A stretch of 64,000 nucleotides of DNA, taken from the NCBI GenBank assembly GCA_965231155.1, contig OZ246418.1, forward strand, positions 42,266 through 106,265, given 5' to 3'. The translations under genes were made by a program, and so were the position numbers. Within the stretch, counting starts at the first letter, position 1. Each line of letters starts with the position of its first letter. The notes below the pieces were generated by a model, which saw only the letters and a list, made by a program, of their open reading frames with translations, was not told the origin of the DNA and searched no databases. The stretch comes from an uncultured Candidatus Saccharibacteria bacterium. Lineage in GTDB: Bacteria; Patescibacteriota; Minisyncoccia; UBA6257; 2-01-FULL-56-20. This document shows positions 2,021 to 38,340 of the stretch, one piece after another.

Positions 2021-2090
2021 GAGCTCAATTATATACTCTTTGAATAACAAATAACAACTTCCATCCCAATATGGAGGAAGGATACCCGAT

Positions 2091-3233
2091 CTAATCCTCA
2101 AGTCCAATAATCCCCAAAAAATTCCTCCTCTGTTCCTCTCTATCTTTTTCTGTCTCGGGCAAATGGTATTCAGGATCGAAAACTTCATCAAGATTCACTT
2201 CCATCTTCCCATTTTTCAGCTTTTCTCCAAGAGCTAGACGCTTCACCACATAAGCCACCGCCACGCCAGACAGAGTGGCGGCATCCCCTAGTTGTGGCCA
2301 AGAGTATAAAGTTCGGCCCACTTCTAAAAGCGACTGCTGCATCCGGGTCGTTACGAAGTGCTTCCCGGCGATTTTTGTCGCTAAACGAGGCAGTTCTTGC
2401 GGTGCCATCTTCTGAAACTCCTCCAACGTTAAATGACCGGCTACACCATTAAAGATTTCAAGATTCGGATCAAGATCGTATCGCTCAATATCGAAAATAA
2501 TATTGTCACCATTATCCGTAGCCATCACTACTGGGATACCGCGCTTCTTGGCCTCTATCCTCAATCTAATTTTTAGTTCTAAATTATCAAGCTCTTCAAC
2601 AAGTACATCTAAACCATCAAGAAATTCACCGATATTCTGATCCGTCACTCCCTCGGGATATACGCGTAGATCAGCATATGGATTCATCTGATACACCTGC
2701 TCAGTAACGACATCGCATTTATTCTTATTCACAAACGTAAAATCATACCGAAGACGATTTAAATTCGAACCAGAAATCACATCCGGATCAGCCAAGCGCA
2801 TGTGTTTTCCAGCACCCATCATAGCCAGGGTCAAAGCAGCGTGACTGCCCACACTCAAGCCGGCAACTCCAATCTTGAATTCATAAAACTTCTTTTGTTC
2901 TTCGGCGAGAATGATATTCCGGTTGCGCGCTGTTCGGAGCTCTTGATGCATCTCTTCTGGTAGATAATGCACAATAATTTTGTTCCAAGGAAAATAGAAC
3001 CAAACACCTAATTGTTCTAAGGGCCTACCCGCCGATTGTTCTGCTAAAAAGATTTCGAAATCAGCCTGATAGTCTTTATCAAACTTAAAACGAGGATTCC
3101 TAATCAAAAACAGTTCCTCGAGAAGTTCCCTGTATGCATCGAAAACCTGAGAAACTTCGTGAGATTTCCTAAATTGCTCCAGCGACTGTTCTTCTATGTT
3201 GATAATAATTGGCTTCATGCTTTTTCTACCCAT
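2091..3233 (-). CDS. ThiF/MoeB/E1-like adenylyltransferase with ~110-aa N-terminal extension
   Basis: Rossmann GxGxxG-like motif IGVAGLSVGSHAALTLAMMGAG followed by DPDVISGSNLNRL (E1 family signature D-x-D-x-V-x-x-S-N-L-N-R). The N-terminal extension resembles the architecture of MccB-type peptide-adenylating E1s (inference). Confidence 0.7.
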   Translation of the reverse strand: MGRKSMKPIIINIEEQSLEQFRKSHEVSQVFDAYRELLEELFLIRNPRFKFDKDYQADFEIFLAEQSAGRPLEQLGVWFYFPWNKIIVHYLPEEMHQELRTARNRNIILAEEQKKFYEFKIGVAGLSVGSHAALTLAMMGAGKHMRLADPDVISGSNLNRLRYDFTFVNKNKCDVVTEQVYQMNPYADLRVYPEGVTDQNIGEFLDGLDVLVEELDNLELKIRLRIEAKKRGIPVVMATDNGDNIIFDIERYDLDPNLEIFNGVAGHLTLEEFQKMAPQELPRLATKIAGKHFVTTRMQQSLLEVGRTLYSWPQLGDAATLSGVAVAYVVKRLALGEKLKNGKMEVNLDEVFDPEYHLPETEKDREEQRRNFLGIIGLED

Positions 3234-4732
3234 TTTTGTTTAATACCTGGCTTGAAATAACGACTATGTTCGGCTGGCCAGAAAACGAGATGAGGCAAGG
3301 CCCGCTCTCCAACATGTCGATATAACTCTCTGAACTCCGAGTTCTTATCTTTCATATCTTCAATAATAACCGTTAGAATCTTCTTCTCAAGTTGCTTAGT
3401 TAGCTTCTTCCCAGGTCGAAGTTCTAAGTTGAGTTCCCAGTACTGATCTTGCGAACGATCAAAACGAGTGAACATAGTCAACTTGCCTGTTAAATATTGA
3501 TTGATGGATTTCCTCAGTAATGCCTCTTTTACCACCTCCGGATATATCTGTAATCCATATATGGTGATAGAAAAATCCATCCGCTCATAGATATACACAA
3601 ACGGAAGTTTCTGCAGGTGATCACTAATCTTCGCCTTTTTTGCCTCTTTCTCGAAATCAATGCCATGAATTTTGAACTTGTCCATTATCTCACTAAACTC
3701 ATAGATTCCCCCATGATCTCCAATAGAATATCTGACCAATGGCACCGCACTATCACCAGTCAGCAAAATTTCTCCATTAGGAGCTTCAAACTTGATAAAT
3801 AGTGGATTGTACTGAGCAAGTGTCGGAGTCTTCTTTATTTTCGAAAAAATATCTTCAAAGACATTCCTCTCCTTCAGAGCGAGACGACGGATGAGGATGG
3901 AGGTTGGAGTTTCGTATCCCATTGTCCCAATATCGGCAGATCCATAAATATTCAACGTATCAAAATATGGGTCTTTCACATGAGCCTTCTTGGCCACATA
4001 GTCACGAAAATTCTCAGTAAAAGCCTCGGCTGCAAAAAGCAGTCTGAGATTTAGTTTCTTCAGATTCATCCCAGAAGCCTCTGCCTCATCGAGAACATCT
4101 TTAATAAACGGTGGGTAACCAACGAGTACTGTTTGATGGAATGAAGGCGACAGGCGACGCAAAGCCTTAATAATCTCCGCCTTATTGATACCTGTGGTAA
4201 TAATGGAAACTGGATAGTTTCCTCGCTGACTAGCCAGCTCGAATGCTTTGTATGTGATGAGTCCGGCAATCCAGACACCCATACCAAAACCCACAATCAC
4301 CAGTGTCGACTTATTCATTCTTTCTGAAGTTGCCTTCAGAAAGAATTCATGGAAGATAGAAGACTCCCAATCCAAATCATTGGAACGCAAGAAATAAAAA
4401 GGCTCCCCAGTTGAACCTGATGTCGATGTAAAAACAAATGGTTTATTAAGAGAGCCATCCCAGCACAATTTCTGAAGAGGATACTGCTGGAGATAGTTCT
4501 TCTTGCTTACAGGAGGAATATACTGAAAATCTTTGAAATGCTTGATCTTCTCGGGAGAAACTTTATGACGCTTCAAGAAGTCCTTATACGCAGGTACTCG
4601 TCGAGCCGCTTGATGGAATAAAGAAAGCGCCTTCTCTTCTCCTTGCTTCTTCCAAAATAACTCACCCTTATTTTCTAAAAAAGAGACAATCTGCTGAGCA
4701 GAGTACTCAGTCATATCGACCAATTGTACCAC
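3215..4732 (-). CDS. PaaK/CapK-like (phenylacetate-CoA ligase / F390 synthetase family) adenylate-forming enzyme
   Basis: FVFTSTSGSTGEPFYF P-loop-like adenylation motif (cf. SSGTTGKP of PaaK) and downstream YGSADIGTMGYE. Overlaps the E1-like gene by 19 nt, which suggests translational coupling. Confidence 0.6.
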   Translation of the reverse strand: MVQLVDMTEYSAQQIVSFLENKGELFWKKQGEEKALSLFHQAARRVPAYKDFLKRHKVSPEKIKHFKDFQYIPPVSKKNYLQQYPLQKLCWDGSLNKPFVFTSTSGSTGEPFYFLRSNDLDWESSIFHEFFLKATSERMNKSTLVIVGFGMGVWIAGLITYKAFELASQRGNYPVSIITTGINKAEIIKALRRLSPSFHQTVLVGYPPFIKDVLDEAEASGMNLKKLNLRLLFAAEAFTENFRDYVAKKAHVKDPYFDTLNIYGSADIGTMGYETPTSILIRRLALKERNVFEDIFSKIKKTPTLAQYNPLFIKFEAPNGEILLTGDSAVPLVRYSIGDHGGIYEFSEIMDKFKIHGIDFEKEAKKAKISDHLQKLPFVYIYERMDFSITIYGLQIYPEVVKEALLRKSINQYLTGKLTMFTRFDRSQDQYWELNLELRPGKKLTKQLEKKILTVIIEDMKDKNSEFRELYRHVGERALPHLVFWPAEHSRYFKPGIKQKWVEKA

Positions 4733-4758
4733 AACTCATAAGATTGGTAAGCAGGAAT

Positions 4759-5496
4759 CTATATCCTACTAGAATCAACCAGGAAAGGCTTGAGTATAAT
4801 AGGGCTCGAAAGAAAGGCTAAGAAAATTAAGCCCACTACTCCGATTATCAGATCCAAGCCGTATAAGTGATCACCTCTTGATTCTGAATACAATAAAACA
4901 AATCTCAAAAATACATCAAAAAAACCAAGCAAACCACCAACAACAAGAAATCTAGATAGAATTTTTACTTCACGAGTTTTCCCCTTCTGAGCAAGCTGAG
5001 AAAAAATGTAGATGAAAGATCCTATACTGGCAGCTAGAAGTAGAAAAGTTAATAGGGATACCCTATAGCTAATGTCCCAGTAGAGGCCGCCCTCCGGAGT
5101 TATTACTCCCCGAGGCGCAAAGATTAGGGTAACTAGAATTAATAAAAATCCTAATAAGCCGGTCGCTATCGGACCAAAGTGAAAAGGAAATCTGGGGAAA
5201 AAGATATAATAAACTGAATAAACTCCGAGAGTTGCATGTAACACTAGAGCTACATTCGTGAGAAGCAATACATAAAAAAGACCGACCTGACTGCCGGAGA
5301 AAAGTAATGAACCAAAGCCTAGAATCCCATTTTGTAAGGCTGATAAAAAAATGAATACGCTAATGACCAAACCGATATAACTACTTTGTTGGTTCTCGGT
5401 GGATCTACGGAAAGCTTGGAAGAACCAAAAACTACAAATACTTAAACCAACAAAAAGGAGGGTGAAGGCAATCGATGTAGAGGTGATAACCATCAA
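4759..5496 (-). CDS. Polytopic membrane protein, unknown function (first gene of the E1/PaaK operon)
   Basis: 245 aa dominated by hydrophobic helices (at least 6 predicted TM segments). No recognisable motif. Confidence 0.4.
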   Translation of the reverse strand: MMVITSTSIAFTLLFVGLSICSFWFFQAFRRSTENQQSSYIGLVISVFIFLSALQNGILGFGSLLFSGSQVGLFYVLLLTNVALVLHATLGVYSVYYIFFPRFPFHFGPIATGLLGFLLILVTLIFAPRGVITPEGGLYWDISYRVSLLTFLLLAASIGSFIYIFSQLAQKGKTREVKILSRFLVVGGLLGFFDVFLRFVLLYSESRGDHLYGLDLIIGVVGLIFLAFLSSPIILKPFLVDSSRI

Positions 5497-5512: not shown

Positions 5513-6295
5513 CTACGCTCCGCCGAATGCAACGGAACCAGAACCAAAGAATGGCTTCTTGTGTGCTTTTTTAGCGTCCTCCCAAGAAAGATCAAAAGCT
5601 TTTTTCAGGGCTTCGGCCATCTCCTGACTCTCAATCACTAACGCGAATTTGTTAACTGGCGACATAAACACAATCTTATTGTCATAGACGCTAATCTCTG
5701 GAGAAACTTTTAATGGAGCGCTATCTTTACTAACTTTCGCGAACTCATGCATGGTCGCCGTCTCTGGAAACAACATCTTCACTTTGACATTTTTCTTGGC
5801 GAGACGATCGTAGTATTTTTCTGGGACAGTTCCTCCTTCATCTTTCGCGGCATAGGCACGAATTGTTTCCAGTGAGCTCAGCGCATCTTCATACACCGTT
5901 TTCATTCCTTCGACGCCTTCGAAGAGTTGTACCTTAGGCATCAAGGAGTTCTCCTTGCCGGCTTCGAGTTTCAGTTTTGGCAAAAGTTCTCGAGCCACAC
6001 TGGCCAGTTCGGTATATTCTTTAGCGCTCCCTTCGAGATACTGGACGAGTTGTTCGGGAGAAATCGAATTGTAGACCTTCACGCCACGTCGTTCGGTAAT
6101 GCTCACCAATCCACGCTTTGATAGGGCGTCTAAAATAACATAGGTGGTGCTACGATTGATGCCCGCTTTTTTGGAGATATCGCTCACAATCGAGGAACCA
6201 AGCTTTAAAAGCGCGGTATAGACCTCCGCTTCTTTCTCGGAAAAACCTGCTTTTCGCAAAACGCCGTCGAGGTTCATAGTGTTCTTATTATACAA
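5513..6295 (-). CDS. TrmB-family transcriptional regulator
   Basis: N-terminal winged HTH: LRKAGFSEKEAEVYTALLKLGSSIVSDISKKAGINRSTTYVILDALSKRGLV, characteristic of TrmB/sugar-specific regulators. Confidence 0.7.
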   Translation of the reverse strand: MYNKNTMNLDGVLRKAGFSEKEAEVYTALLKLGSSIVSDISKKAGINRSTTYVILDALSKRGLVSITERRGVKVYNSISPEQLVQYLEGSAKEYTELASVARELLPKLKLEAGKENSLMPKVQLFEGVEGMKTVYEDALSSLETIRAYAAKDEGGTVPEKYYDRLAKKNVKVKMLFPETATMHEFAKVSKDSAPLKVSPEISVYDNKIVFMSPVNKFALVIESQEMAEALKKAFDLSWEDAKKAHKKPFFGSGSVAFGGA

Positions 6296-6303
6296 TAACT
6301 AAA

Positions 6304-6327
6304 TTTATAATTGTTAATAATTATAAA
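6304..6327. promoter_or_regulatory. AT-rich inverted repeat (TTTATAATT-N6-AATTATAAA) immediately upstream of TrmB-family gene start; candidate operator/promoter element
   Basis: Perfect 9-bp inverted repeat seen directly in sequence, 9-30 nt upstream of the minus-strand start codon at 6295. Confidence 0.25.
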
Positions 6328-6375
6328 CAACAATAATAAACCTGTCAACAAGGGGACACCCGAGTCCAGAAAAGA

Positions 6376-6804
6376 CTATCCCCTGGCCTCGTCTAAGGCC
6401 TTATTGACCATCCGATCAGCAGCTTTATTCAGCTCTCGGGGAATGTGTTTGAACGTCACGCTCTTAAAGTCTAGTCGCAAGTTCCAGATCTGCATAAAAT
6501 AGGGCTGGAGTTTCTCATCTTCGATTTTATAAATTGCATTCATCTGCTTCACGATCAACTCACTATCCATTCTGACTTCAACATCTGTTTGTTTTGCTTT
6601 TGTTTTCCCAAGAAGTGCCTTGGCTTTCTTTAACGCGAAAACCAATGCCAAGTACTCAGCTTGGTTATTCGTCATAATTCCTAAGTACTCTCCGTATTCT
6701 TTTCCACCAACTACCGCGCCCAAAGCCGCTGGCCCAGGATTACCTCGCGATCCCCCATCGGTATAGATAAGAAATTTATTTTCTGTTGGAAAAAGTGAAC
6801 TCAT
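6376..6804 (-). CDS. rnhA: Ribonuclease HI
   Basis: FLIYTDGGSRGNPGPAALGAVV ... TNNQAEYLALVFALKKA: canonical RNase H catalytic D/E/D motifs. Confidence 0.85.
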   Translation of the reverse strand: MSSLFPTENKFLIYTDGGSRGNPGPAALGAVVGGKEYGEYLGIMTNNQAEYLALVFALKKAKALLGKTKAKQTDVEVRMDSELIVKQMNAIYKIEDEKLQPYFMQIWNLRLDFKSVTFKHIPRELNKAADRMVNKALDEARG

Positions 6805-7376
6805 TTGCCAATTAATCGTAAGAAAACCTGATATGTTGTCCGTGCATCATCAATCGCCCGGTGCGCTCGGCCACGATCAACACCAAAATAATTTGCTAAC
6901 TCTCGCAAAGAAAACCTCACTAACGACGGATCGTCCCGCAACTGCAACCAGGCCAACGCAAACGTATCTAGCGGTTTATAAAAATAGTTTCCTTCCAGGT
7001 CGTGATCCCAAAGTGCTTTTTCGAGATGAAGCATATCAACAGAAACATTGTGGCCAACAAGGATCGCGTCCTTGGTGTACCGCAGAAACTCTTCAAGCCC
7101 GGCCTTCATCTCTACTCCTTCCCGCTTCCACTCCTCCTCGTCGTAACCACTAATCTCTAAACCACTCGGATCAGCGTTCTCGATATGCTCTGGTTTAAGC
7201 TTAATGTCTCTCTCATTCAGAATCTCAAAACTACCGGCCTTGGCCTTAACAAGACCAATCTCGGTGATCTCGTGATCAAATCGAAGACCAGTAAACTCAC
7301 AATCAAAAAACACCAAATCGCGATCATGGATGAGGGGCTCGTATTCTGGCTGGATGATATCAGTTTCTTCTGGCAT
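6801..7376 (-). CDS. DEDDh 3'-5' exonuclease (DNA polymerase III epsilon/DnaQ-like)
   Basis: Exo I FFDCEFTGL, Exo II GHNVSVDMLHL, Exo III HRAIDDARTT motifs. Start set at MPEETD to avoid 100-nt overlap with the upstream paralog. Confidence 0.75.
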   Translation of the reverse strand: MPEETDIIQPEYEPLIHDRDLVFFDCEFTGLRFDHEITEIGLVKAKAGSFEILNERDIKLKPEHIENADPSGLEISGYDEEEWKREGVEMKAGLEEFLRYTKDAILVGHNVSVDMLHLEKALWDHDLEGNYFYKPLDTFALAWLQLRDDPSLVRFSLRELANYFGVDRGRAHRAIDDARTTYQVFLRLIGK

Positions 7377-7380
7377 AGAA

Positions 7381-9162
7381 TTAGGCAACTTCCGCCTGGT
7401 AGCACGCTTCGCAGTATACAATCTCCGGTCGATCAGGGCTATAGGAGGTCTGAAAAACATTAGAACACTGCGCTTCTCCATGAGGATGCACTGCCAAATT
7501 AAGATACACTCCTCCGTCTGAACACTTCCCGGAACACTGACAAGTCCGTGGCCATAGTTTAATCGGATTTCTTTCGGCTAAGCGTTCGTAGTGTCGACAG
7601 TTCGAACAGAGATGAGGAGCTGGTATATTCATCTGCCGATAAAACGCCAACTCAGTAGGAATAATCTTAAATACCGTTCCGCACTGATGATTGCACTGAC
7701 CTGCGTGTTCACATGAGACTGTCTGTTCGAGAATAGAGTCATCAATCTCGGTAATAGTATTCGGGAGGTTCTTTGATTGGACGGTTGCTTGGTAGTTTTT
7801 CTCTGTTGCTCCCTTCCACTTCACAGAACCGAGTTTGGCCTGCTCCTGGCTTAATGGTCGCAACTCCTGAGCCACTGTTTCGTTGTACGCAAAAGGAGAA
7901 ATCTGCGCAGGGAAAAACTCTCCGTACTTATACATACGACCACCCTGATCTACATACGGCATCGTATTCATGTGTTCGATAATCTTCGGAACCAGAGCTT
8001 CATACTCCTCTTTTGAGTATTGTTTATTCAAAATACAGTACTGTTTATTCCGTAACCCAACACACCCAAAAAGATAGGAGGAGTTGTGGCAGTTGTATGA
8101 GTACTGTACGTTGTGGCAGTTAAAAATAAATCGAGAGAAAACGGACTTGCTGCCTGGATAGATTGTCGAAATCTCATACGAGAGTTCTGATTTCAAACCA
8201 AAGTGATCACAATCAACACAATCCTTCACACTCGAATAGGCCAACCATAAATAACGGCAATCTTCGGCACCACCAAAAACATCGAACGTCATAAAACAAT
8301 TCTTGGTCTCCTCGAGATTATCACCGAGAGAGTTGATCCCTCTTAATATCCGCGCAAATTTTCGAGGATACTTCTGGGCATGGAGCTTAAACTCGGCTTT
8401 CAGTTTTTGAACAGCCTCATAGTTTCCTAAATCGAACTCCTTGATCTTCTTTTCATACTCCTCCTTTGAATACTGAACATTAAAAATGCAGTAGGATTGA
8501 TTCGAAAGATTGACGCACCCAAAACAATCATGGCAGTTTCTACAGTTCAGAAGAAAAGCAGAATTATAACAACCCTCACAGTACCGACTATAGAGAAGTT
8601 TCGAGCAGTTAATACAGTCGATCGTACTGTAGTTCCATTCACATTTCGTATCCCAGTAACAGTCGGAACATTCTTTACTCTGAAAAATAAATGCAGAGTA
8701 GTTTGTATTTTCATTAAAATCGCCACCAATAACCAAATAACAATTCTTGTTCCCTTCAGTAATGCTGCAATAGTCACTATTCACTGGATTAATATTTAGA
8801 AGGGCTATATCAGGAACCTCTCCCCAAAGTTCCTGTAGTTGAGTAAAAAATGGACGATTGAAATCGTACTCCCTAAAAAAAGTAGCGGCATCCCAAGAAT
8901 CGCTCCACCACTCCTTGTGATCGTACACTTTCTGAGAGTTGTCAGGAGAAAAAATTGAAATCACTTCCTCGGTGTGACCTGGAGCATCACATTTTCTTCG
9001 GTAGAGCGTCCTTTCATTACGGAAAGTCATTCGACGCACAAGCCGACACTCAAAACAGAAGGTTGGCGGAGGCACATCCATCTTCTTATAGAACTCGAAA
9101 TCAGCCGATTCAATCGTGAACGACTGTTTGCAGTTCTGACAGTTTTTAGTCTCTGAGTTCAT
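7381..9162 (-). CDS. Cysteine-rich ~590-aa protein, paralog 1 of 3 (zinc-ribbon-like N- and C-terminal modules, internally repeated Cys-rich core)
   Basis: N-terminal CQNCKQSF-I-DFEFYKKMDVPPPTFCFECR...RN.R.LY.RKC and matching C-terminal module (CNHQCGTVF-I-ELAFYRQMNIPAPHLCSNCR...RNP..L..R.C). The core has two copies of C..C..C..S..L.NC.NC.DCFGCV.L.N..YCI.N.QYSKEEYE. More than 35 Cys residues. Confidence 0.6.
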   Translation of the reverse strand: MNSETKNCQNCKQSFTIESADFEFYKKMDVPPPTFCFECRLVRRMTFRNERTLYRRKCDAPGHTEEVISIFSPDNSQKVYDHKEWWSDSWDAATFFREYDFNRPFFTQLQELWGEVPDIALLNINPVNSDYCSITEGNKNCYLVIGGDFNENTNYSAFIFQSKECSDCYWDTKCEWNYSTIDCINCSKLLYSRYCEGCYNSAFLLNCRNCHDCFGCVNLSNQSYCIFNVQYSKEEYEKKIKEFDLGNYEAVQKLKAEFKLHAQKYPRKFARILRGINSLGDNLEETKNCFMTFDVFGGAEDCRYLWLAYSSVKDCVDCDHFGLKSELSYEISTIYPGSKSVFSRFIFNCHNVQYSYNCHNSSYLFGCVGLRNKQYCILNKQYSKEEYEALVPKIIEHMNTMPYVDQGGRMYKYGEFFPAQISPFAYNETVAQELRPLSQEQAKLGSVKWKGATEKNYQATVQSKNLPNTITEIDDSILEQTVSCEHAGQCNHQCGTVFKIIPTELAFYRQMNIPAPHLCSNCRHYERLAERNPIKLWPRTCQCSGKCSDGGVYLNLAVHPHGEAQCSNVFQTSYSPDRPEIVYCEACYQAEVA

Positions 9163-10952
9163 GTAACTTCGCTATTATAGCATTGCTCACAGTAGATAAT
9201 CTCGGGGCGATCTGGCGCGTAAGAAGTCTGGAAAGTGTTCAGACATTGGGCATCTCCGTGAAAATGAGGCGAGGTATTCGCGAAGGCACCGTTTGAAGAC
9301 CAGGAGCCACTACACTGACACTGTCGTGAATAAAGCGCCAATGGATTTCTCCAGCTGATCCGGTCCACATGACGACAGTTAAAACAAAGTCGTGGCAGCG
9401 GTAGTTGCATCTGACGATAAAATGCGAGTTCTTCAGGCGTGATACGAAAAGCCGTAGTGCAGTTAGAACCACACATACCAGAGTGATTATTTATTTCATC
9501 GTGCATGCAATGAATAATCTCTTTCACTATCGAGTCATCCACCCCGGAAATAGTTTCAGGTAGGTCTTTTGATTCTTTCGTTATCTGATACTCTCTTTTT
9601 TTAGAAGCTTGCCAGCGATAGCCTTGTTCTTCGACTTCTTTTTGTGTGAGGGGAAAATATTCTTGCCCCTGGCTTTCGTTATATCCTATGGGATTTATAT
9701 CGAGCGGAAAAAACTCGCCATACTTATACGTTCTTCCTTTCGAATCGACGTAGGGCATCTCACTCATATGCTTGATAATTCTCGGCACAAGCTCTTCGTA
9801 TTCTTCTTTAGAATACTGCTTATTAAGAACGCAGTACTGCTTACTTTTTAAGCCAACAGAACCAAAGACGTTGCTCACACTTTTGCAGTCCATGATATAC
9901 TGGGAGTCTGTTGCCGTCTCACAGTTCACAGTAAAAAAAGATCGATGAAGACCAAGTCCCGAACAGGAAGTTTCATAAGCAAGCTCCGCATCAACTCCAG
10001 TTGATGTTATATCCATGCAGTCCTTGATAGGGTCAAAGATGATACTCTGGGAGTATGCGCAATTTTGAGCTTCGTTTGCAAAATAACAGTTCTTGAGCTC
10101 GGAGGAGTTATAAATGTAATCCCCCTTACACCCCGCATCCTTTACGCCATGTCGGAAACGAACCGGATTTTTTATCCAAAACTCTTCCGCTTGTTTTCGA
10201 GCTTGATGTACTCCCTCTCGAGATTTCAAGTCGAACTCCTCTAGCTTCTTAACATACCCTTCTTTTGAATAAGGCTGGTTGAAAATATAATAATTTTTAT
10301 TTCGAAGACCACTGCAACCAAAACAGTTAGAACAACCAACACAATCCTGACTCAGCCACACATCACTGCACGAGTTACAGTTTCGGGAATAGAAAGTCTT
10401 ATAGCATTGCGTAAGGTTGATAGAGTAGTAACAAAGCTCTGAATATTTGGTATTAATGGTATCAAAGCAGTTCTTTGCCTTCTGCAAAGTCACGTTATAG
10501 GCACTATCCTCACACTCACCTGAATCAAAACACATATACGAGTTTTTCATGTCTAATCCTTGACCATACTCGCTATTCACACTGTTCGTATTAAATACGC
10601 TCATCGTCGGAACTTTGAAGTAGAGCTCTTTAAACTGCGCAAAAAATGGTCGAGAAAAATCATAGTCAACGCCATATTCTAAAGAATCCCACGCATCACT
10701 GATCCAGTACTGCCGATCATAGACAGGCATCGGCGCGTCCTCGGGAATTAGTGAGAATATTTTTTTACCAGTGGCGTCACACACACGTTCATGCAATGTG
10801 CGCATATTCCGAAATGACATTCGTCGCATCGCGCGGCACCGCCAACACCAGGTCGGCGGTGGAACCTCAATTTTCTTATAGAAATCAAAATCGGCGGGTT
10901 CGATTACAAAATCTAATTTGCAATTCTGACAGCTGCGTGTTTCTAAGTTCAT
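9159..10952 (-). CDS. Cysteine-rich ~597-aa protein, paralog 2 of 3
   Basis: Same architecture as 7381-9162 (MNLETRSCQNCKLDFVIEPADFDFYKKIEVPPPTWCWRCR...). Shares a 4-nt ATGA start/stop overlap with paralog 1. Confidence 0.6.
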   Translation of the reverse strand: MNLETRSCQNCKLDFVIEPADFDFYKKIEVPPPTWCWRCRAMRRMSFRNMRTLHERVCDATGKKIFSLIPEDAPMPVYDRQYWISDAWDSLEYGVDYDFSRPFFAQFKELYFKVPTMSVFNTNSVNSEYGQGLDMKNSYMCFDSGECEDSAYNVTLQKAKNCFDTINTKYSELCYYSINLTQCYKTFYSRNCNSCSDVWLSQDCVGCSNCFGCSGLRNKNYYIFNQPYSKEGYVKKLEEFDLKSREGVHQARKQAEEFWIKNPVRFRHGVKDAGCKGDYIYNSSELKNCYFANEAQNCAYSQSIIFDPIKDCMDITSTGVDAELAYETSCSGLGLHRSFFTVNCETATDSQYIMDCKSVSNVFGSVGLKSKQYCVLNKQYSKEEYEELVPRIIKHMSEMPYVDSKGRTYKYGEFFPLDINPIGYNESQGQEYFPLTQKEVEEQGYRWQASKKREYQITKESKDLPETISGVDDSIVKEIIHCMHDEINNHSGMCGSNCTTAFRITPEELAFYRQMQLPLPRLCFNCRHVDRISWRNPLALYSRQCQCSGSWSSNGAFANTSPHFHGDAQCLNTFQTSYAPDRPEIIYCEQCYNSEVT

Positions 10953-11215
10953 AGAATTTGGAAATCTTTATAATGCTTATGCTCAGCATTTTCGACTTCA
11001 ATCTTCTCGACTCGCGCCTCTCGCGGGCCTTTCTTACACCAAGCAATAAACAAATCCAACTGATCATCATCTCCTTCAACTTCGGCCAAAACTGAACCGT
11101 CTGGCATATTCTTTACATAACCAAACACGCCAATAACTTCTGCCATCTTCTTCGTTGTGTCCCTAAAGAAAACATCCTGGACCTTGCCGTATACTTTAAT
11201 AACGAGATGGTTCAT
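10949..11215 (-). CDS. acyP: Acylphosphatase
   Basis: VKVYGKVQDVFFRDTTKK ... GYVKNMPDGSVLAEVEGDDD: acylphosphatase signatures (V-x-G-x-V-Q-G-V-x-F-R and G-x-V-x-N). Confidence 0.8.
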   Translation of the reverse strand: MNHLVIKVYGKVQDVFFRDTTKKMAEVIGVFGYVKNMPDGSVLAEVEGDDDQLDLFIAWCKKGPREARVEKIEVENAEHKHYKDFQIL

Positions 11216-11220
11216 AGCTC

Positions 11221-12993
11221 TTATACGATTTCGGCATTATAACACTGCTCGCAATACACTATCTCTGGGCGATCTGGGGTGTAGGTCGTTTCAAATTTAT
11301 TCAGGCATCGTCCACCGACATGAGAGGTGTGCTCTTTAGAATTCCTAAAAACTTTGCCATCACATACGCACTGACGACTACAAAGCTTGAATTTATTCCG
11401 CTCTCCAAGACGCTCGTAGTGGCGGCAATTGACGCATAGTTCAGGAATGGGGACACCAAGCTTCTTTAACAATTGAAGCTCTGGAGCGATTAGACGAAAT
11501 ACCTTGGTGCATTGATGATTACAAACTCCTTCATGTCGACACTGAATCAGTTCCTGAAGAATACCCTGGTCCACCTCTTGGATTGATGTAGGGATCTGTG
11601 AAAACTTCATCGTAAAAGTATTCGACTTATCCTTTGCCTCACGCCATATATATCCTCTCTTAACCGCCTCCTCCTTATCTAACGGAAAATATTCTTGAGC
11701 GATGGTTTCGTTGTAGGCAAAAAAAGACATCTCCATAGGGAAAAATTCACCGTAACGATATTCTTTCTTGTGTGAATCAACATATGGCATAGCCATCATA
11801 TGTTCTTTGATCTTTGGCAGAATAGCTTCATATTCTTCTTTGGAATACTGCTTATTCAGAATGCAGTACTGTTTATTCCGAATACCTACGGACCCAAAAC
11901 AATGCGGAGAATTTCGCACAAAATAACAATACTGAGTATCGTAGCTTTCCCAAACATTACCGCAAAAAGCGACATTATGAACCTTAAGTCCGGTATCCAT
12001 AATGTCGTAACTTGATTCAACGAGACCTACGGCGTAAGCGTCATAGAGATCTCTCATCTCAGTCACACCATAGACTAGAAAGCGCGAGTTCTCAGCAGGA
12101 CCTTCCACATCGAAACAATCCTTACAGTCTTTCACGCCATTCAGGTAATCTCCAGTAGAGTTGACGGCTCGACGAGAGTTAGAGAACTTTCTAGGCCGAG
12201 TAAGTAATAATTCTCGGAAACGCTTCTCCACGATAGCCCGACCTGTTTTAGTGTCTAGACGAAGTTCTTTAACTTTTTCCTTGTATTCTTCAGGAGAAAA
12301 CTGCTGATTGAAAATTGAATGTTTGGCGTTTCTTAACCCTACACAACCAATACAATCCTGAGAATTACGGCAGTCATAGCAATATTTTGAATTGATACAT
12401 CCCTCAGAAAGAATGAGGTGATCACTCTCGTAGCAAGCCTCCGAATCAACCAGTTGGTAACAGTGTTCATTTTTCCTAGAACCAAGCATATCAAAACAAT
12501 CTTTGTTTTCGATTGAGTGGTAGAGATACGCCGTGTCTTCGTTCATGTCACTCGCAAAATTCAGATAGCAGTTTTTTGATTCATAGGTAAAGTTGCAATA
12601 ATCGCTTTGAACATCGCTAATGTTAATGAGTGAGATAAGCGGGACTGAGTTTAGAAGCTCTTTCCATTGCTCAAAAAAAGGCCTCGAGAAATCATACTCA
12701 CGCCCATACTGCATAGGATCCCACTCGTCGCTCCACCAGTATTTTGTATCGTATACAGGAATAGCGAGCTCTGGCGGATACATAGTAATAATGGATTCCC
12801 CATGACCCGGAGCATCACATTTTCGCTTATAGAGATTCCTCTCATTCCTCCAGGTTAAACGGCGCATCAAACGACAGTCCGGACAAAAAGTCGGTGGTGG
12901 CACCTGCATTTTTTTGTAGAAATCAAAATCGACTGACTCTATCGTAAATTCTTGTTTACAGTTCTGACAGTTTTTTACTTCTTTTTCGGCCAT
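11221..12993 (-). CDS. Cysteine-rich ~590-aa protein, paralog 3 of 3
   Basis: MAEKEVKNCQNCKQEFTIESVDFDFYKKMQVPPPTFCPDCR... Colinear with paralogs 1 and 2 throughout. Confidence 0.6.
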   Translation of the reverse strand: MAEKEVKNCQNCKQEFTIESVDFDFYKKMQVPPPTFCPDCRLMRRLTWRNERNLYKRKCDAPGHGESIITMYPPELAIPVYDTKYWWSDEWDPMQYGREYDFSRPFFEQWKELLNSVPLISLINISDVQSDYCNFTYESKNCYLNFASDMNEDTAYLYHSIENKDCFDMLGSRKNEHCYQLVDSEACYESDHLILSEGCINSKYCYDCRNSQDCIGCVGLRNAKHSIFNQQFSPEEYKEKVKELRLDTKTGRAIVEKRFRELLLTRPRKFSNSRRAVNSTGDYLNGVKDCKDCFDVEGPAENSRFLVYGVTEMRDLYDAYAVGLVESSYDIMDTGLKVHNVAFCGNVWESYDTQYCYFVRNSPHCFGSVGIRNKQYCILNKQYSKEEYEAILPKIKEHMMAMPYVDSHKKEYRYGEFFPMEMSFFAYNETIAQEYFPLDKEEAVKRGYIWREAKDKSNTFTMKFSQIPTSIQEVDQGILQELIQCRHEGVCNHQCTKVFRLIAPELQLLKKLGVPIPELCVNCRHYERLGERNKFKLCSRQCVCDGKVFRNSKEHTSHVGGRCLNKFETTYTPDRPEIVYCEQCYNAEIV

Positions 12994-14081
12994 GGTCGTT
13001 TTAGAGCCTCAATACCCGGCAACTTCTCACCAGCCAAATAAGCTAACATCGCACCTCCACCAGTGGAAACAAAATTAAACGCCTTATCAAGCTTATTCTC
13101 CTTAATGAACATCACCGTCTCTCCACCACCGGCCAATCGAAAGGCTTTTTTATTTTTAGCGATTTCTTTTATCAGAGCACAGGTCCCATACGAAAACTTC
13201 TTTTTTTCGATAAAGCCGAACGGACCGTTCCAGATAATCGTCCCCGCAGTCTTAATTTTCGGGATAAACGATTTTACCGATTGAGGCCCGGAGTCGAGAA
13301 TTCTTTCTTTTTCCCAAATAAAATCTATAGGCAGTAAGAGATTTTTATAACGTGCAATTTCTTTAACCACTGCTCCGGGATCTTCATCGGCCACTGATCC
13401 CTCAATATCAACTCCCCGTTCTCGAAGAATTGTATTGGCTACTGCTCCACCGAGAATAAAGGTGTCGGCTCTCGTTTTAAAATACTTAATAACCGGTAGC
13501 TTGTCGTGTGCTTTTCCGCCTCCAAAAATAATAACCAGTGGCTTCTGGGCACGCCTCATTACATAGGAAAGATGTCCAATTTCTGACTCTAATTCCAGAC
13601 CACCAAAACTTGGTAAAATTTTTGTAATCGCAGATACCGAAGCGTTGGCTCGGTGTGAAACAGCAAAAGCATCATTAACGTAATAATCTGCCAGCGAGCC
13701 CAGTTGCTTAGCCAACTTGATATCATCCTTCTCCTCTCCTTTTAAAAACCTAAGATTCTCCAGTAGGAATATACTTCCTCTTGGGGATCTCTCTATCTCT
13801 TTTTTGATTTCAGCAAAACGAAAATGTGGAATAAAAGAAACTTTTTTCTTCAAAAGTTTCTCTAGATTCTTAGCGTCTTTCTTTAAACTAAATTTTTCAT
13901 CAACCTCCCGTGGACGACCGCGATGGCTCACAATTACAATCTTCGAAGCCTGCTTCAGAAGAAAATGAATAGTTGGTATTGTCGCCTCCATACGCCATTC
14001 GTCTTCGGTATTGAAATCTAAGCGAAGCAGCGCAGTCCCTCCTAGTTTCTCCGGACTGGCTTGCTTCAGATATTTAATCAT
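12975..14081 (-). CDS. pgk: Phosphoglycerate kinase
   Basis: LLRLDFN...VSHRGRP, AFAVSHRANASV, FIWNGPFGFIEKKKFSYGT, AGGGETV: canonical PGK motifs. Confidence 0.9.
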   Translation of the reverse strand: MIKYLKQASPEKLGGTALLRLDFNTEDEWRMEATIPTIHFLLKQASKIVIVSHRGRPREVDEKFSLKKDAKNLEKLLKKKVSFIPHFRFAEIKKEIERSPRGSIFLLENLRFLKGEEKDDIKLAKQLGSLADYYVNDAFAVSHRANASVSAITKILPSFGGLELESEIGHLSYVMRRAQKPLVIIFGGGKAHDKLPVIKYFKTRADTFILGGAVANTILRERGVDIEGSVADEDPGAVVKEIARYKNLLLPIDFIWEKERILDSGPQSVKSFIPKIKTAGTIIWNGPFGFIEKKKFSYGTCALIKEIAKNKKAFRLAGGGETVMFIKENKLDKAFNFVSTGGGAMLAYLAGEKLPGIEALKRPWPKKK

Positions 14082-14123
14082 TACGGTTTATTATACTCGA
14101 GGTTTTCTATATAATGAAAAGGT

Positions 14124-15389
14124 ATGGAAAGAAAGCGGATAGTCATTCTGGGAGGGGGGTTCGGCGGTCTCACGACCGCTTTTTCCATATCGAAAGAACT
14201 CCACAGCCTCCGACTCCTCGACTCATATGAACTCGTCCTTATTGATCGGAACGAACATCACACCTTTATTCCCCTCTTATATGAGGTGGCAACTACGGCC
14301 AAAGAGACAGCAAATCTTATTCACCTTCATGACCTGGTCACCCACAACCTGACTGAACTAACCACACACTCATCAATCCGTTTCATTCAGGATGAGGTAC
14401 AAAGAATCTCTCCCAAAGAGGGCCTCATCACCCTGAAGAAAAACGGCACTATGAAAGCTGAATACATTGTCCTGGCCTTAGGCTCAGAAGTGAACTACTT
14501 CAATATTCCTGGACTCAAAGAGTATTCCCTGACACTGAAATCATTTTTCGACGCCATCCATCTTCGAGACGCTATCGTCAATCTGGCCGAAAACAAATCA
14601 GTCATTGAAATAGTGGTGGGTGGGGCAGGACCGACAGGAGTTGAGCTGGCTGGAGAACTCACTAACTGGTGTTCACGCTCACTTGGCTGCCAGCTCCATG
14701 TCACACTCATTGAAGCCCAGCCGAATATTCTTTTCGGCTTTCCTTCCAATATTGCTGGCCGAGCAGAAAGACGCCTCCGCGATCTTGGGGTACATATAAA
14801 AACTCAGGCAAAAATTCTTCAACTATCTACTAAGGAAGTGGAACTGGGAAATGGTGAAAAAATACCGTTTGATCTTTTCGTGTGGAGTGGTGGCGTAAAA
14901 ACTCCCGACCTCCTCCTCAACCTCCCTTTAAAAACTGAGACTCGTGGTAGAATCGAAACCCACGAGACTATGGCCTGTCTTCCGCAAACCCCAGATCTAG
15001 AGCTAGGCTGTATGGTTTACGGTATTGGCGACAATGTCTGTTCTTATGATCCTCGCACCAATAAACCAGTTCCGGCGGTTGCTCCGGCAGCTATCGCACA
15101 AGCAGGCGTGGCCGCGCACAACATTATGCAGGATATTAGAAAAGCAGAAGGTCTGCCCCAAACTATTCGCCGAACGTATATTCCAGCCGACTATCCTTAC
15201 GTCATTCCAGTCGGCGGTAAGTACGTTATTGCAAAAATTGGTCCTATTGTCCTTGCCGGAATCTTCGGCTGGATATTTAAAGGACTTGTCGAGTTCTATT
15301 ATCTCACTTCGATTATGCCGAAATCAAAAGCCTTTCGTGTCTGGATTAAAGGACTCCTCGTTTTTATGAAAAACGACAAGCTAGGATAG
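14124..15389 (+). CDS. ndh: Type II NADH dehydrogenase-like FAD/NAD(P)-binding oxidoreductase
   Basis: N-terminal RIVILGGGFGGL dinucleotide-binding motif and second GGAGPTGVELAGEL Rossmann motif. Length and layout match NDH-2. Confidence 0.7.
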   Translation: MERKRIVILGGGFGGLTTAFSISKELHSLRLLDSYELVLIDRNEHHTFIPLLYEVATTAKETANLIHLHDLVTHNLTELTTHSSIRFIQDEVQRISPKEGLITLKKNGTMKAEYIVLALGSEVNYFNIPGLKEYSLTLKSFFDAIHLRDAIVNLAENKSVIEIVVGGAGPTGVELAGELTNWCSRSLGCQLHVTLIEAQPNILFGFPSNIAGRAERRLRDLGVHIKTQAKILQLSTKEVELGNGEKIPFDLFVWSGGVKTPDLLLNLPLKTETRGRIETHETMACLPQTPDLELGCMVYGIGDNVCSYDPRTNKPVPAVAPAAIAQAGVAAHNIMQDIRKAEGLPQTIRRTYIPADYPYVIPVGGKYVIAKIGPIVLAGIFGWIFKGLVEFYYLTSIMPKSKAFRVWIKGLLVFMKNDKLG

Positions 15390-15402
15390 AGAGTAAGACC
15401 TT

Positions 15403-17775
15403 CTACGCTCTTAAACGACGGTGAATCTCTGATTCGACAACTGCCCGATCGGCACCATACTTCAAACGTGAATACTCTTTCATCTTGGTGGCAAGATCAA
15501 CATCCCCTCCCCGCCAGGAGGTGGTGGAGACTTTCATATTGAATGGTCTGGCCGTCTGACCATTAATCAAAAGTTTCACATGGGCATTTAAGTTGTCGAT
15601 ATTAATAAGGTCATTTTCATCAAAAACAGGAGCGAATTGTTTTGCCAAGAACTCAGCGTCCTGGACGCCAACTCGCATGGCCACCTGGGAACCGACGTTT
15701 CCGAATATTGAATCTCGAATCTTCTCCTCGAGCTGGGCGATAAACTGGTGGGCCACTGTTAAATTGAGACGGTACTTTCTGGCCTCCGAAAGAATGGTGG
15801 AGATCGAATCGGTCGTGAAGTTCTGAAACTCGTCAATGTAAAGATAGAAATCACGACGCTTATTCATATCAGGAATGTCACCACGCGAAAGTGCGGCCAT
15901 CAGAATCTTTCCGGTGAAAATCATACCTAACAAACTAGCATTAATATCACCAATCTTTCCTTTCGAAAGATTAATAATCAGAATCTTTCCAGAATCCATT
16001 ACTTCTCTGAAATTAAAAGCTGACTTCGGCTGACCAATGATTGGACGCATATAATCATTGGCAATGAAGTTGTTAAATTTAGAAGTGATATACGGAGTCA
16101 TGTTTGCTAATGACGCCTCACCACCAGCCTTGGCGGCTTCCTTCTCCCAAAAATCAACAACCACAGGATTTTGAATACGCTGTAATTTTCGTTTTCGAAA
16201 TTCGGTATCTGTAAAAATTCGTGGCACCTCAACCAGGGTCGCGGGCTCATTCGGCATATCTTCCATTAAAAGCAACAAGGCATTCCTCATATACTGTTCA
16301 AACATCGGACCCATTGTTTCGGCCACGAATAATTTATTAAAAATGCTTTGCATCTCGTTTACAATAAACGTCTTCTCCTCTGGACGATCAAAGTTGTAGT
16401 CGATCATATTTAATCCTAATGGTCGTGCCAGATCACCAGGGTTGAAGTAGATAAGATCGTCTAAACGTTCTTTGGGAATATGCTCAATCACATTCTCCGC
16501 CACATCACCGTGAGGATCGATGATCGAAACTCCCCGACCAGCCTTAATATCCTCAATGAGCATACTAGCCAAAAGAGTTGTCTTACCAGTTCCAGTCTGA
16601 CCAACAACATAGACATGACGTCGACGATCTTCCTCCATAATGTAGACAGGATGCTCCTGTCCTCGAAAATTGGTCTGGCCCATTAAAAGTCCTGACTTTG
16701 GCAAATCAGCAGGCGGTGGAGCCTCTTTTGATTTCAACCACTTCACTTTTGGTGTCTCGGTTGTGGAAATGGGAAGATGGTAGAGGCTGGCCAGTTCTTC
16801 GGCATTCAGAATCATAGCTTTTTCTTTATCAAATTTTCGGAAGACATACTGGTGCAAAAGCGCTTGGACATTACGCGGTTTTACAATACGAAAACTATTC
16901 CGTCGTGGACTGGTGAACTGACTAAAGGGAGTAGCGATGCCATCAATAATTTCATCAGCCACACGGGTATTCGGGGCCGAAGCGATAATCCGCACGTTTA
17001 CCATAAATAAAGCTTTTTCAATTTTTTGTTCCAGCATTTTCAACCCCTCCTCGTCGACAAGACGTTCATTTTTCCTACGCTCCCGTCCTTCGGCATCGAG
17101 CGCGTGTTTGATTTCTTTTACGTTCCATGGCGTCTTCTGATGAAACACTTTACTTAAGGACTCTCCTCGTTTCATCTCTTTAATATAATTTTCAACCAGT
17201 CGACGAGAGTCGCTCGGCGCTGGCTGAATAATCACCTGCAAGGCAGCTCCCTCGCCAAGCTCCTGGATTTTTGCGAAGCCGTTCAAAATGCCATCGAACG
17301 CATCGGCGCCAATCTCCTCGTACGTTCGAATGGGAAGCGCAAAAGATTCCTTTTGCTCAAAGAAGGCGGCGGTAGTAATTCCCTGAGCATTGAATACATT
17401 GTAGTCGTCCGGCAAAGGCACCACGCTGGCATTCGTCCAAACTCCCTGGACCTGTTTAATCGCCGCCTCGCTCAACTCTCGAGGAATCGCCATATGAAAA
17501 TGAATCTCTTCGCCAATATGAGGCACCGCTACTTCGAAAACAAATGGAGCACGGAAAGAAGCAAGGGAAGCAAAAAGTTGTTCGGTTTTATTAATTTCTC
17601 GCTTGAAGTCGTCAGATGGCCCGCCTTCTTTTTTTGGTTCACGGGGGATTCTAATTAAGAAAAGTTCGAGAGAAAGGGAGGAGAGGAGGGCCTGAGTCTG
17701 CACTCGACGAAAGATAAAGTATCCCCCCGCAACAAGAATGAGACCGATGAGTAAAATGAGAATTATTTCAATCAT
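15403..17775 (-). CDS. TraD/VirD4/TrwB-like type IV coupling-protein ATPase with N-terminal TM anchor
   Basis: N-terminal hydrophobic segment; Walker A VVGQTGTGKTT; DEFQNF and HQFIAQL motifs typical of T4CP/TraG-D C-terminal region. Confidence 0.7.
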   Translation of the reverse strand: MIEIILILLIGLILVAGGYFIFRRVQTQALLSSLSLELFLIRIPREPKKEGGPSDDFKREINKTEQLFASLASFRAPFVFEVAVPHIGEEIHFHMAIPRELSEAAIKQVQGVWTNASVVPLPDDYNVFNAQGITTAAFFEQKESFALPIRTYEEIGADAFDGILNGFAKIQELGEGAALQVIIQPAPSDSRRLVENYIKEMKRGESLSKVFHQKTPWNVKEIKHALDAEGRERRKNERLVDEEGLKMLEQKIEKALFMVNVRIIASAPNTRVADEIIDGIATPFSQFTSPRRNSFRIVKPRNVQALLHQYVFRKFDKEKAMILNAEELASLYHLPISTTETPKVKWLKSKEAPPPADLPKSGLLMGQTNFRGQEHPVYIMEEDRRRHVYVVGQTGTGKTTLLASMLIEDIKAGRGVSIIDPHGDVAENVIEHIPKERLDDLIYFNPGDLARPLGLNMIDYNFDRPEEKTFIVNEMQSIFNKLFVAETMGPMFEQYMRNALLLLMEDMPNEPATLVEVPRIFTDTEFRKRKLQRIQNPVVVDFWEKEAAKAGGEASLANMTPYITSKFNNFIANDYMRPIIGQPKSAFNFREVMDSGKILIINLSKGKIGDINASLLGMIFTGKILMAALSRGDIPDMNKRRDFYLYIDEFQNFTTDSISTILSEARKYRLNLTVAHQFIAQLEEKIRDSIFGNVGSQVAMRVGVQDAEFLAKQFAPVFDENDLINIDNLNAHVKLLINGQTARPFNMKVSTTSWRGGDVDLATKMKEYSRLKYGADRAVVESEIHRRLRA

Positions 17776-17790
17776 GATGAGAGCCTCGAA

Positions 17791-18186
17791 CTACAACACT
17801 CCCCGCTCTTCTAGGTGTGGATATAGTTTCTTCACTAACGCATCATGGAAGGCATCAAGGACAAAGGGGTTGGCCTTTCTGGCTTCACGATCAGCTTTCA
17901 GAATGCCTTGATGAAAAGCGATATCGAGTAAGTATTCCACCTGAAGCTTCGTTTCTGCTGAGGCGTTATCCACATACTGAGGCAAAGGATTCTGTAGGTC
18001 GGTTGGGGTGACCACTGGACCATTGTTCGTATCCGTAAAAGACTGAATAGACTTCTTTAAAAGCGCTTCTCCAGTGAGATGTCTTGTTTCTGGTGCCTCC
18101 TGATGCTTCCCTACTTCACGGGCTAGATGGGTGAGATCATCTTCAAGCGCCTGGTGTTCAAATTCTGGTAGTAATTGTTCAGCCAT
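17791..18186 (-). CDS. Hypothetical acidic protein upstream of the coupling ATPase
   Basis: 131-aa ORF, 16 nt upstream of the ATPase on the same strand. No recognisable motif. Confidence 0.35.
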   Translation of the reverse strand: MAEQLLPEFEHQALEDDLTHLAREVGKHQEAPETRHLTGEALLKKSIQSFTDTNNGPVVTPTDLQNPLPQYVDNASAETKLQVEYLLDIAFHQGILKADREARKANPFVLDAFHDALVKKLYPHLEERGVL

Positions 18187-18205
18187 GTTGTTATTATAGT
18201 ATACA

Positions 18206-38335: not shown

Positions 38336-38340
38336 ATTCA

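Follow-up and report, generated by a model that had tools for sequence, protein, structure and literature searches.

The stretch of DNA analysed here (the window) comprises 64,000 nucleotides of contig OZ246418.1 (positions 42,266 to 106,265, assembly GCA_965231155.1) from an uncultured Candidatus Saccharibacteria bacterium. On its minus strand lie three genes for cysteine-rich proteins. They belong to a large, unnamed family of predicted zinc-capped solenoid proteins that recurs beside genes for VirD4/TrwB-like ATPases. This placement suggests, tentatively and with somewhat less than even confidence, that the family proteins are non-enzymatic partners, either adaptors or cargo, of orphan VirD4-like ATPases. 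The family is new only at the level of protein family and architecture, and it corresponds to no described kind of protein beyond its two small zinc-finger domains. The three colinear paralogs reported in an earlier note on the DNA were found as open reading frames at the following positions; gene calls for window reading frames were made on an independent assembly.

11221-12993, minus strand: paralog C, 590 amino acids, open reading frame and gene call; first family gene after pgk
9159-10952, minus strand: paralog B, 597 amino acids, open reading frame and gene call
7381-9162, minus strand: paralog A, 593 amino acids, open reading frame; the copy used for the structure model

The full-length pairwise identities are 45% (A/B), 49% (A/C) and 41% (B/C), each protein contains 32-38 cysteines (5.4-6.4%), and no further family copy is present in the 64-kb window. 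From N- to C-terminus, A consists of a zinc module, core 1, a helix, core 2, a conserved segment and a second zinc module, which map to the window as listed below.

8977-9162, minus strand: N-terminal treble-clef zinc finger (predicted), basic; A residues 1-62, with C8, C11, C36 and C39
8452-8808, minus strand: core 1, A residues 119-237; narrow solenoid with about 12 residues per coil, ending in QYSKEEYE
7999-8313, minus strand: core 2, A residues 284-388; homologous to core 1
7816-7962, minus strand: YGEFFP...YNET...W segment, A residues 401-449; strongly conserved
7384-7713, minus strand: C-terminal double-zinc module (predicted), A residues 484-593; homologous to the N-terminal module

The earlier note described an internal module duplication, and this is confirmed. 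The two terminal zinc modules of A align with each other at 35% over 52 residues (E 3e-11), and core 1 (about 136-237) matches core 2 (about 284-388; 41% over 107 residues, E 4e-24), each copy of the cysteine-rich core ending in QYSKEEYE as had been stated. Site 1 of the C-terminal module of A consists of C484/C494/C519/C522 and site 2 of C541/C566/C584/C587, the latter with a C-x-C...H-x-H insertion. The YGEFFP...YNET...W segment has a mean identity among paralogs of 53%, compared to 42% overall, and G414, F416, P418, Y426, N427 and W449 are nearly invariant. An AlphaFold2 model of A built from a 135-sequence alignment has a mean predicted local distance difference test score (pLDDT) of 90.5 and a predicted template modelling (TM) score of 0.91, with lower pLDDT values of 67-88 in the cores. 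There the model places short strands about every 12 residues, and the cysteines recur with a period of 12. Foldseek found no solved structure in the PDB that resembles the model (E ≥ 0.056, TM score < 0.1), and the weak best fold matches are all beta-solenoids. Among viral models only small phage "zinc-ribbon domain" proteins superpose, and they do so on the terminal fingers. It is well supported that the cores are narrow beta-solenoids with an interior lined by Cys and Ser. Narrow beta-solenoids such as insect and plant antifreeze proteins, curli CsgA and the left-handed beta-helix (LbH) acyltransferases are among the closest known systems. The marks of the LbH acyltransferases (a Pfam Hexapep match, [LIV]-G-x4 repeats, a trimeric LbH fold) are lacking in the family, as are those of beetle-type antifreeze proteins, which are secreted and built of 12-residue TCTxSxxCxxAx coils with one disulfide each. 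A signal peptide is absent from the family proteins.

The zinc-ribbon-like motif that the earlier note quoted for the ends of the proteins is present at the N-terminus, and an alignment of 60 terminal modules (30 N-terminal and 30 C-terminal) reveals that both termini are one homologous unit of about 85 residues with two four-cysteine sites. Site 1 (CxxC...F.I...FY.K..P.P..CxxCR..RR) corresponds to PF13451 (zf_Tbcl), described as a "probable treble clef". PF13451 matches 35 of the 60 modules at E<0.1, the best E-value being 5.7e-9; the window copies score 14.5-15.9 bits (E 0.013-0.034), which is below the 24-bit cut-off with nearly the whole model covered. Site 2 (C.xC...Y.P.RPE.VYC..CY) corresponds to PF23477 (zf_Tbcl_2, the CxxC-x17-CxxC domain of NCBI), for which the best family member scores 32.1 bits (E 9e-8) against a cut-off of 27 bits. 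The C-terminal module of A reaches 14.5 bits (E 0.029), below this cut-off, and those of B and C give no PF23477 match because of the C-x-C...H-x-H insertion. In small proteins of Methanosarcina, a domain of the CxxC-x17-CxxC type binds zinc, as measured by inductively coupled plasma mass spectrometry (PMC12704099). The end modules of the family thus resemble proteins with these domains, with a PF13451-type finger followed by a PF23477-type finger. Most known members stand alone as small proteins or form short tails on other proteins, whereas here two modules cap a body of about 420 residues that matches no family. Site 2 (C-x2-C...VYC-x2-CY) also weakly matches the second finger of LIM domains (CRP1 in the PDB, E 0.004), but this covers half a LIM domain and lies below the Pfam threshold.

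Co-variation of the cysteines across 227 full-length copies separates the end modules from the cores. All four cysteines of the N-terminal site 1 are 95-99% conserved. Those at positions 61, 81 and 84 are all present or all absent (phi 0.96-1.0; present in 48% of copies), and positions 494, 519 and 522 co-vary at phi 0.86-0.95. This all-or-none gain and loss of ligand tetrads is what would be expected if the terminal modules hold four-cysteine zinc sites. In all three window copies the second site of the N-terminal module is degenerate, as the cysteines at 61, 81 and 84 are missing and only C58 is kept. The core cysteines are uncorrelated (phi < 0.4), with Ser, Val, Leu, Thr or Ala taking the place of one cysteine at a time. 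Because they exchange independently, as in the buried ladder positions of a narrow solenoid, they do not appear to be metal ligands, and the implication of the earlier note that the cysteine-rich cores are metal centres does not hold. A metal-storage, iron-sulfur or redox protein using the core cysteines as ligands is accordingly very improbable, in spite of the 32-38 cysteines per protein. The run C207-x2-C210-x2-C213-x2-C216 at the end of core 1 is exempt from the co-variation argument, since it is nearly invariant (80-96%) and varies too little for such an analysis. Its equivalent in core 2, however, retains just two of the four cysteines, and neither a ferredoxin-type CxxCxxCxxxCP motif nor a Pfam iron-sulfur match was found in A, B or C. 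Apart from the zinc sites, conservation falls mainly on aromatic residues, Asn, Pro and Gly. A catalytic signature was not seen among them, and the conserved non-cysteine residues look structural, as far as can be judged from sequence.

Searches of curated families, solved structures and the literature left the family unrecognised, as the earlier note had it. With the full-length A, B and C, Pfam, NCBIfam and PADLOC returned nothing above threshold; sub-threshold matches such as WXG100, Med15 and uteroglobin were judged noise, and for PADLOC models no match was found at E up to 0.1. No PDB sequence matched a whole protein, and profiles of the modules gave only weak half-matches to LIM domains. 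A confident match to a single-copy housekeeping family was looked for and did not appear, and literature searches with the Pfam names and for cysteine-rich tandem paralogs in Patescibacteria yielded nothing on this family. It is nevertheless large. Among 8,000 candidates from a search of 5.8 billion clustered proteins, at least 7,991 are significant relatives, of which the top 120 are 54-100% identical, carry no Pfam domain and are all named "hypothetical protein". An exhaustive profile search of 1.84 billion representatives at 50% identity gave 4,604 clusters (1,986 at E <= 1e-30), nearly all full length at 550-600 amino acids. A phage origin was rejected, as one fragment was found among 2.9 million viral contigs.

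Relatives are encoded in 303 stretches of species-representative genomes, the best 77 of which are the loci counted below. All 77 are from Patescibacteria of the Paceibacteria/Parcubacteria type (Staskawicz-, Nomura-, Jorgensen-, Lipton-, Brenner- and Harrisonbacteria, Minisyncoccia, Paceibacterota). By every reliably named source, a restriction of the family to Paceibacteria-type Patescibacteria is well supported. Many third-party annotation assemblies with the family are labelled 'uncultured Candidatus Saccharibacteria', and these labels look generic. One full-length member lies on a 4.3-kb contig binned as 'Candidatus Woesearchaeota archaeon' (L074, JBBAAQ010000027.1), which is probably a binning error and not an archaeal occurrence.

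The copies are old. The earlier note regarded them as a local tandem triplication and proposed the ratio of nonsynonymous to synonymous divergence (dN/dS, ω) as a means of telling recent duplication from ancient diversification. This comparison did indicate ancient divergence, but exact values among A, B and C had to be abandoned. Synonymous sites are saturated (proportion of differing synonymous sites, pS, 0.84-0.93) both among the three copies and against their closest orthologs, so that only upper bounds on ω are obtained; with dN of 0.18-0.56 for the same comparisons, ω is well below about 0.2 if dS >= 3. The family is under strong purifying selection. Of the copies with a paralog at the same locus, 206 of 207 have their nearest relative in another genome, and the highest identity within one locus is 58%. 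The closest orthologs of A (L001/L002) are 73-76% identical and that of B (L067) 57%; that of C (L020, 65%) lies directly downstream of a short-type ATPase gene. Because of the saturation and the cross-genome nearest relatives, the copies should be seen as paralogs that diverged long ago and have stayed distinct, without recent duplication or gene conversion, and the idea of a local triplication is abandoned. The 227 copies fall into 52 groups at about 48% identity. Divergence is unevenly distributed along the protein. The parts that stay constant among paralogs (47-57% mean identity) are both zinc modules, the linker after the N-terminal module (85-118), the YGEFFP...YNET segment and, in each core, the final coils together with the QYSKEEY helix; the variable ones (26-33%) are the opening coils of the two cores, the helix between the cores and the linkers.

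Full-length copies occur in runs of 1 to 9 or more, as located by tblastn. Locus L002 has at least 9 in 17.8 kb, L043 and L045 have 8 each, and L008 has 7 in an array running off the contig. Inteins or insertions suspected in loci with matches longer than 1.8 kb proved to be an artefact of joining neighbouring paralogs. The three copies of the window, which the earlier note considered a large investment, thus form a small array.

The neighbours that are informative on function were invisible from the window alone. When genes around the 77 loci were clustered, only a VirD4/TrwB/HerA-like ATPase was strongly recurrent, with 68 genes in 41 loci, and every other neighbour occurred in at most 10. 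By tblastn, a long- or short-type ATPase is present at 37 loci. All but one of the 68 ATPase genes (67) are co-oriented with the family. They lie directly upstream of a family gene 23 times and directly downstream 16 times, with gaps of a few to tens of nucleotides. In their ATPase domain the flanking ATPases are about 60% identical; they make up a single group, within which two types can be told apart. The long type (600-830 residues) ends in a PF23477 finger (47-57 bits), the same domain as site 2 of the family, and the short type (about 490 residues) has no such finger; 20 of 50 flanking P-loop proteins carry it at the C-terminus. A survey of PF23477 domain architectures with a 44-residue query gave one match and was uninformative. 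In some lineages a DUF8128 membrane protein precedes the flanking ATPases, the order being SecD-SecF-sigma/HARE-HTH-DUF8128-long ATPase-family in Staskawiczbacteria and DUF8128-HEPN-ATPase followed by seven family genes in Jorgensenbacteria.

Among 2,918 Patescibacteria genomes, 5,713 VirD4-like coupling-protein homologs have been counted of which only 148 are near virB4, and their exaptation was raised as a possibility by the authors (PMC12102498). These numbers, with about two such ATPase genes assumed per genome of about 0.8 Mb, give a chance adjacency of about 5% per 18-kb locus, compared to 48-53% observed. This bears on the possibility that the proteins have an independent structural or scaffold role and that copies merely accumulate in permissive intergenic slots of compact genomes, a reading that we consider rather unlikely. 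It would account for the variation in copies per slot between related genomes, from 0 to 6 or more, for arrays on at least four different backbones, for the 40 loci that lack an ATPase neighbour and for a consensus promoter and terminator scan that stayed at background. It does not explain an ATPase adjacency that is far above the expected level, co-oriented and found on unrelated backbones, nor the PF23477 finger common to the ATPase and the family.

A second recurrent setting is the Hsp70 locus, where reciprocal sampling was done by way of the long-type ATPase. This protein is 85-94% identical across more than 120 clusters; among the names given by its sources is "CxxC-x17-CxxC domain-containing protein". 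The eight genomes that were chosen are closely related (85-90% identical ATPases) and hence not independent. Their locus starts with rpsM-rpsK-rpsD-rpoA-rplQ-rplM-rpsI-grpE, followed by 0-3 family genes, a PaaX-like regulator on the opposite strand and dnaK, and continues from dnaK with the long ATPase, 0-3 family genes, the short ATPase and dnaJ. Family copies confirmed by tblastn lie within 10 kb of the long ATPase in seven of the eight genomes, none being found near it in L163, and directly between the long and short ATPases in six. Thus, two VirD4/TrwB-like ATPase genes are located inside the dnaK-dnaJ operon of these Paceibacteria (L160-L167; e.g. L160:10001-12019 and 16182-17657), and the C-terminal end of the long ATPase is made up of the CxxC-x17-CxxC finger and a low-complexity tail. 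No paper on this two-ATPase arrangement was found in the literature.

Such positions could point to a role in proteostasis, with the family proteins acting as zinc-centred holdases or co-chaperones of the Hsp70 system, functionally analogous to Hsp33 or the zinc-finger domain of DnaJ and expressed together with GrpE, DnaK and DnaJ. The occurrence of copies between grpE and dnaK and/or between dnaK and dnaJ in seven of the eight sampled genomes would fit this, as would the distance of 8-44 nucleotides between the short ATPase gene and dnaJ in most of them and the weak resemblance of site 2 to LIM protein-interaction fingers. We nevertheless regard it as unlikely. Of the 77 family-centred loci just 11 have an Hsp70-system gene, 9 of these with a long or short ATPase as well, and no Hsp70-system gene is present in the window. 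A CIRCE (controlling inverted repeat of chaperone expression) operator, the target of HrcA, is not present within 3 mismatches in the window or at any locus. Although the family shares an operon with DnaJ in many genomes, it has no CXXCXGXG repeat; neither the full proteins nor the 60 isolated modules gave a Pfam match to the DnaJ zinc finger (PF00684) or Hsp33. Dozens of ancient paralog groups are also unlike usual chaperones.

In view of the above, a partnership with the ATPases is preferred because the adjacency is co-oriented and recurs on different backbones, and because the PF23477 finger is common to both partners. The partners would be soluble or membrane-tethered VirD4/TrwB-like hexameric ATPases whose genes in Paceibacteria lie apart from any type IV secretion channel and often inside the dnaK-dnaJ operon. 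The constant parts of the family proteins (zinc modules, last solenoid coils and YGEFFP...YNET segment) could dock on this common machinery, and the variable first coils of both cores together with the inter-core helix could give each paralog a specificity of its own. The proteins may then either be adaptors that bring different clients to the motor, or be translocated themselves as cargo. A comparison with VirD4/TrwB coupling proteins and their substrates and adaptors is instructive here. As in those systems, co-oriented VirD4/TrwB-like ATPase genes flank the arrays, and many diverged paralogs beside a translocation-type motor resemble sets of effectors or adaptors. Unlike in those systems, no VirB4 channel is encoded in the vicinity, the usual N-terminal membrane domain is missing from the flanking ATPases, and conservation within the family is much higher than effectors typically show.

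Several observations weigh against this ATPase partnership. The window contains neither a long- nor a short-type ATPase, and orthologs of the different, fused ATPase that it does contain seldom adjoin the family. Among the 77 loci, the 40 mentioned above have no ATPase within 8 kb, and the eight reciprocal samples count for less than their number since they are close relatives. Secreted effectors do not usually come as ancient, stable paralogs under strong purifying selection, and export that depends on unfolding is poorly suited to folds stabilised by zinc. Neither the long nor the short ATPase has a transmembrane segment of its own. Genes in tiny genomes are tightly packed regardless of functional relation. 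The proposal is based on gene adjacency and the shared finger.

Alternatively, the family proteins could handle nucleic acid. The basic zinc modules could clamp DNA or RNA, or the acidic solenoid could mimic DNA, in conjunction with FtsK/HerA/TrwB-type translocases. Acidic beta-solenoids, e.g. pentapeptide-repeat proteins, can mimic DNA. The charge distribution is in agreement with such a function, as the modules at either end carry a basic charge (family medians +4 and +7) on a body that is acidic in the window proteins (net -14 to -17). Treble-clef and zinc-ribbon folds commonly bind nucleic acid, the neighbouring ATPases match the TrwB DNA-binding-domain family, and in the window a DEDDh exonuclease and an RNase H follow the family genes. 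The proteins are acidic overall, however (isoelectric point 5.6-6.0), no known nucleic-acid-binding family matches, and the exonuclease and RNase H genes are near just 4 of the 77 loci each, on a backbone that also exists without the family. Nucleic-acid handling seems improbable, for example in a form where cells auxotrophic for nucleotides take up or process foreign nucleic acid.

A wider form of the ATPase partnership would be a trafficking machine new to science and specific to Paceibacteria, made up of the family and the long and short ATPases of the dnaK-dnaJ operon, in which a chaperone-fed hexameric motor works with dozens of ancient zinc-capped solenoid paralogs. These would be interchangeable adaptors or exported cargo, possibly DNA-mimicking, in the interaction with the host cell. 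We consider this rather doubtful, but if true it would explain what the thousands of orphan type IV coupling-protein homologs of Patescibacteria do. The family probably matters to the cells that encode it. Patescibacteria have lost most biosynthetic capacity, and their genomes are smaller than 1 Mb. Many Paceibacteria nevertheless maintain 3 to 9 or more diverged copies of 1.75 kb, up to about 2% of the coding capacity. A large, conserved, lineage-restricted family without a name or a structural relative, and with three-quarters of its length not covered by a Pfam model, is a sizeable gap. Its placement beside the ATPase and Hsp70 genes offers a testable lead on the role of coupling-protein homologs away from type IV secretion systems, and on the way in which these epibionts deal with proteins or nucleic acids where they meet the host.

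In the window, the genes surrounding the three copies are the following.

15403-17775, minus strand: membrane-anchored VirD4/TrwB/HerA-like ATPase fused to DUF8128, 790 amino acids; 2.4 kb upstream of C
12975-14081, minus strand: pgk, phosphoglycerate kinase (Pfam PGK, 7e-96)
10949-11215, minus strand: acyP, acylphosphatase of 88 amino acids, between C and B (Pfam, 5e-25)
6801-7376, minus strand: DEDDh 3'-5' exonuclease, called product 191 amino acids (Pfam RNase_T, 4e-21; gene call)
6376-6804, minus strand: RNase H, final gene of the tightly packed unit (Pfam)

Read along the minus strand, the genes are pgk, C, acyP, B, A, DEDDh exonuclease and RNase H. The stop of pgk overlaps the start of C by 19 nucleotides, a gap of 5 nucleotides separates C from acyP, and the acyP/B and B/A junctions are overlaps of 4 nucleotides (ATGA). 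The start/stop overlaps given in the earlier note are thus correct for pgk/C and acyP/B. The one with the DnaQ-like gene is an artefact of taking the longest reading frame, as the called start of the exonuclease is 4 nucleotides past the stop of A; exonuclease and RNase H overlap by 4 nucleotides. A TATAAT box (14082-14103) about 9 nucleotides upstream of the pgk start codon suggests that the pgk leader may be very short or absent. The end of the pgk-to-rnh unit is marked by a perfect sigma-70 consensus (TTGACA-17-TATAAT) at 6348-6320 on the minus strand, upstream of a TrmB-like regulator gene (5513-6295). Counts in the promoter and terminator scan of 6000-18500 were at shuffle background.

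From the overlaps with acyP and pgk the earlier note deduced constitutive co-expression, but at the level of the family the co-operonic arrangement has no significance. Pgk is near the family in 6 of the 77 loci and acyP in none, so a functional link with either gene was rejected, including the idea of a HypF-like combination of acylphosphatase and zinc finger. Relatives keep a backbone of a small reading frame, the fused ATPase, ndh, pgk, a variable slot, exo and rnh. The slot after pgk holds no copies in L092, L135 and L147, one in L145, two plus acyP in the closest relative (L079) and three plus acyP in the window. We infer that the window copies occupy a secondary, variably filled slot between pgk and exo/rnh and not a core locus.

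The 790-residue ATPase of the window has Pfam matches to DUF87, TrwB_AAD_bind, TraG-D_C and T4SS-DNA_transf and to PF26449 (DUF8128), and in PADLOC it gives a mad8 match (1e-17) and a weak HerA match. It represents a third type, 38% identical to the array-flanking group, and its orthologs have family copies downstream in 3 of 39 loci and upstream in 4 more. As a meaningful partner of the family it was therefore dismissed. DUF8128 and the VirD4-like ATPase, fused in the window, are two adjacent genes elsewhere (L030:4420-7938; L008:2357-5781), and in L008 a HEPN (Swt1-like) gene sits between them.

Other parts of the window also contain notable genes. Downstream of the operon, 296-5496 on the minus strand may be a defence or modification islet, with a GmrSD-type restriction endonuclease (296-2191), a ThiF-family E1-like protein (2091-3233), a 505-residue protein without Pfam match (3215-4732) and a multi-pass membrane protein of 245 residues (4759-5496). 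The region 34196-39627 looks like an element integrated at a tRNA gene (34196-34266), which is followed by a 1324-residue tetratricopeptide repeat (TPR) protein (34361-38335) carrying the PIN domain of the TPR-GreAB-C-PIN system, and by a large serine recombinase (38341-39627). A full-length LOOT RNA (Rfam RF03000, 77.5 bits) is present at 41346-41468 on the plus strand, near a gene for a ParB_N-DNA methylase fusion (42601-43956, minus strand). At 58241-59206 (minus strand) an activator with a sigma-54 interaction domain (Sigma54_activat and HTH_8) is encoded, which seems unusual for a reduced Patescibacteria genome. In one of the Paceibacteria genomes used for comparison, the DnaB helicase gene (L167:19660-22298) holds an intein with a LAGLIDADG endonuclease.

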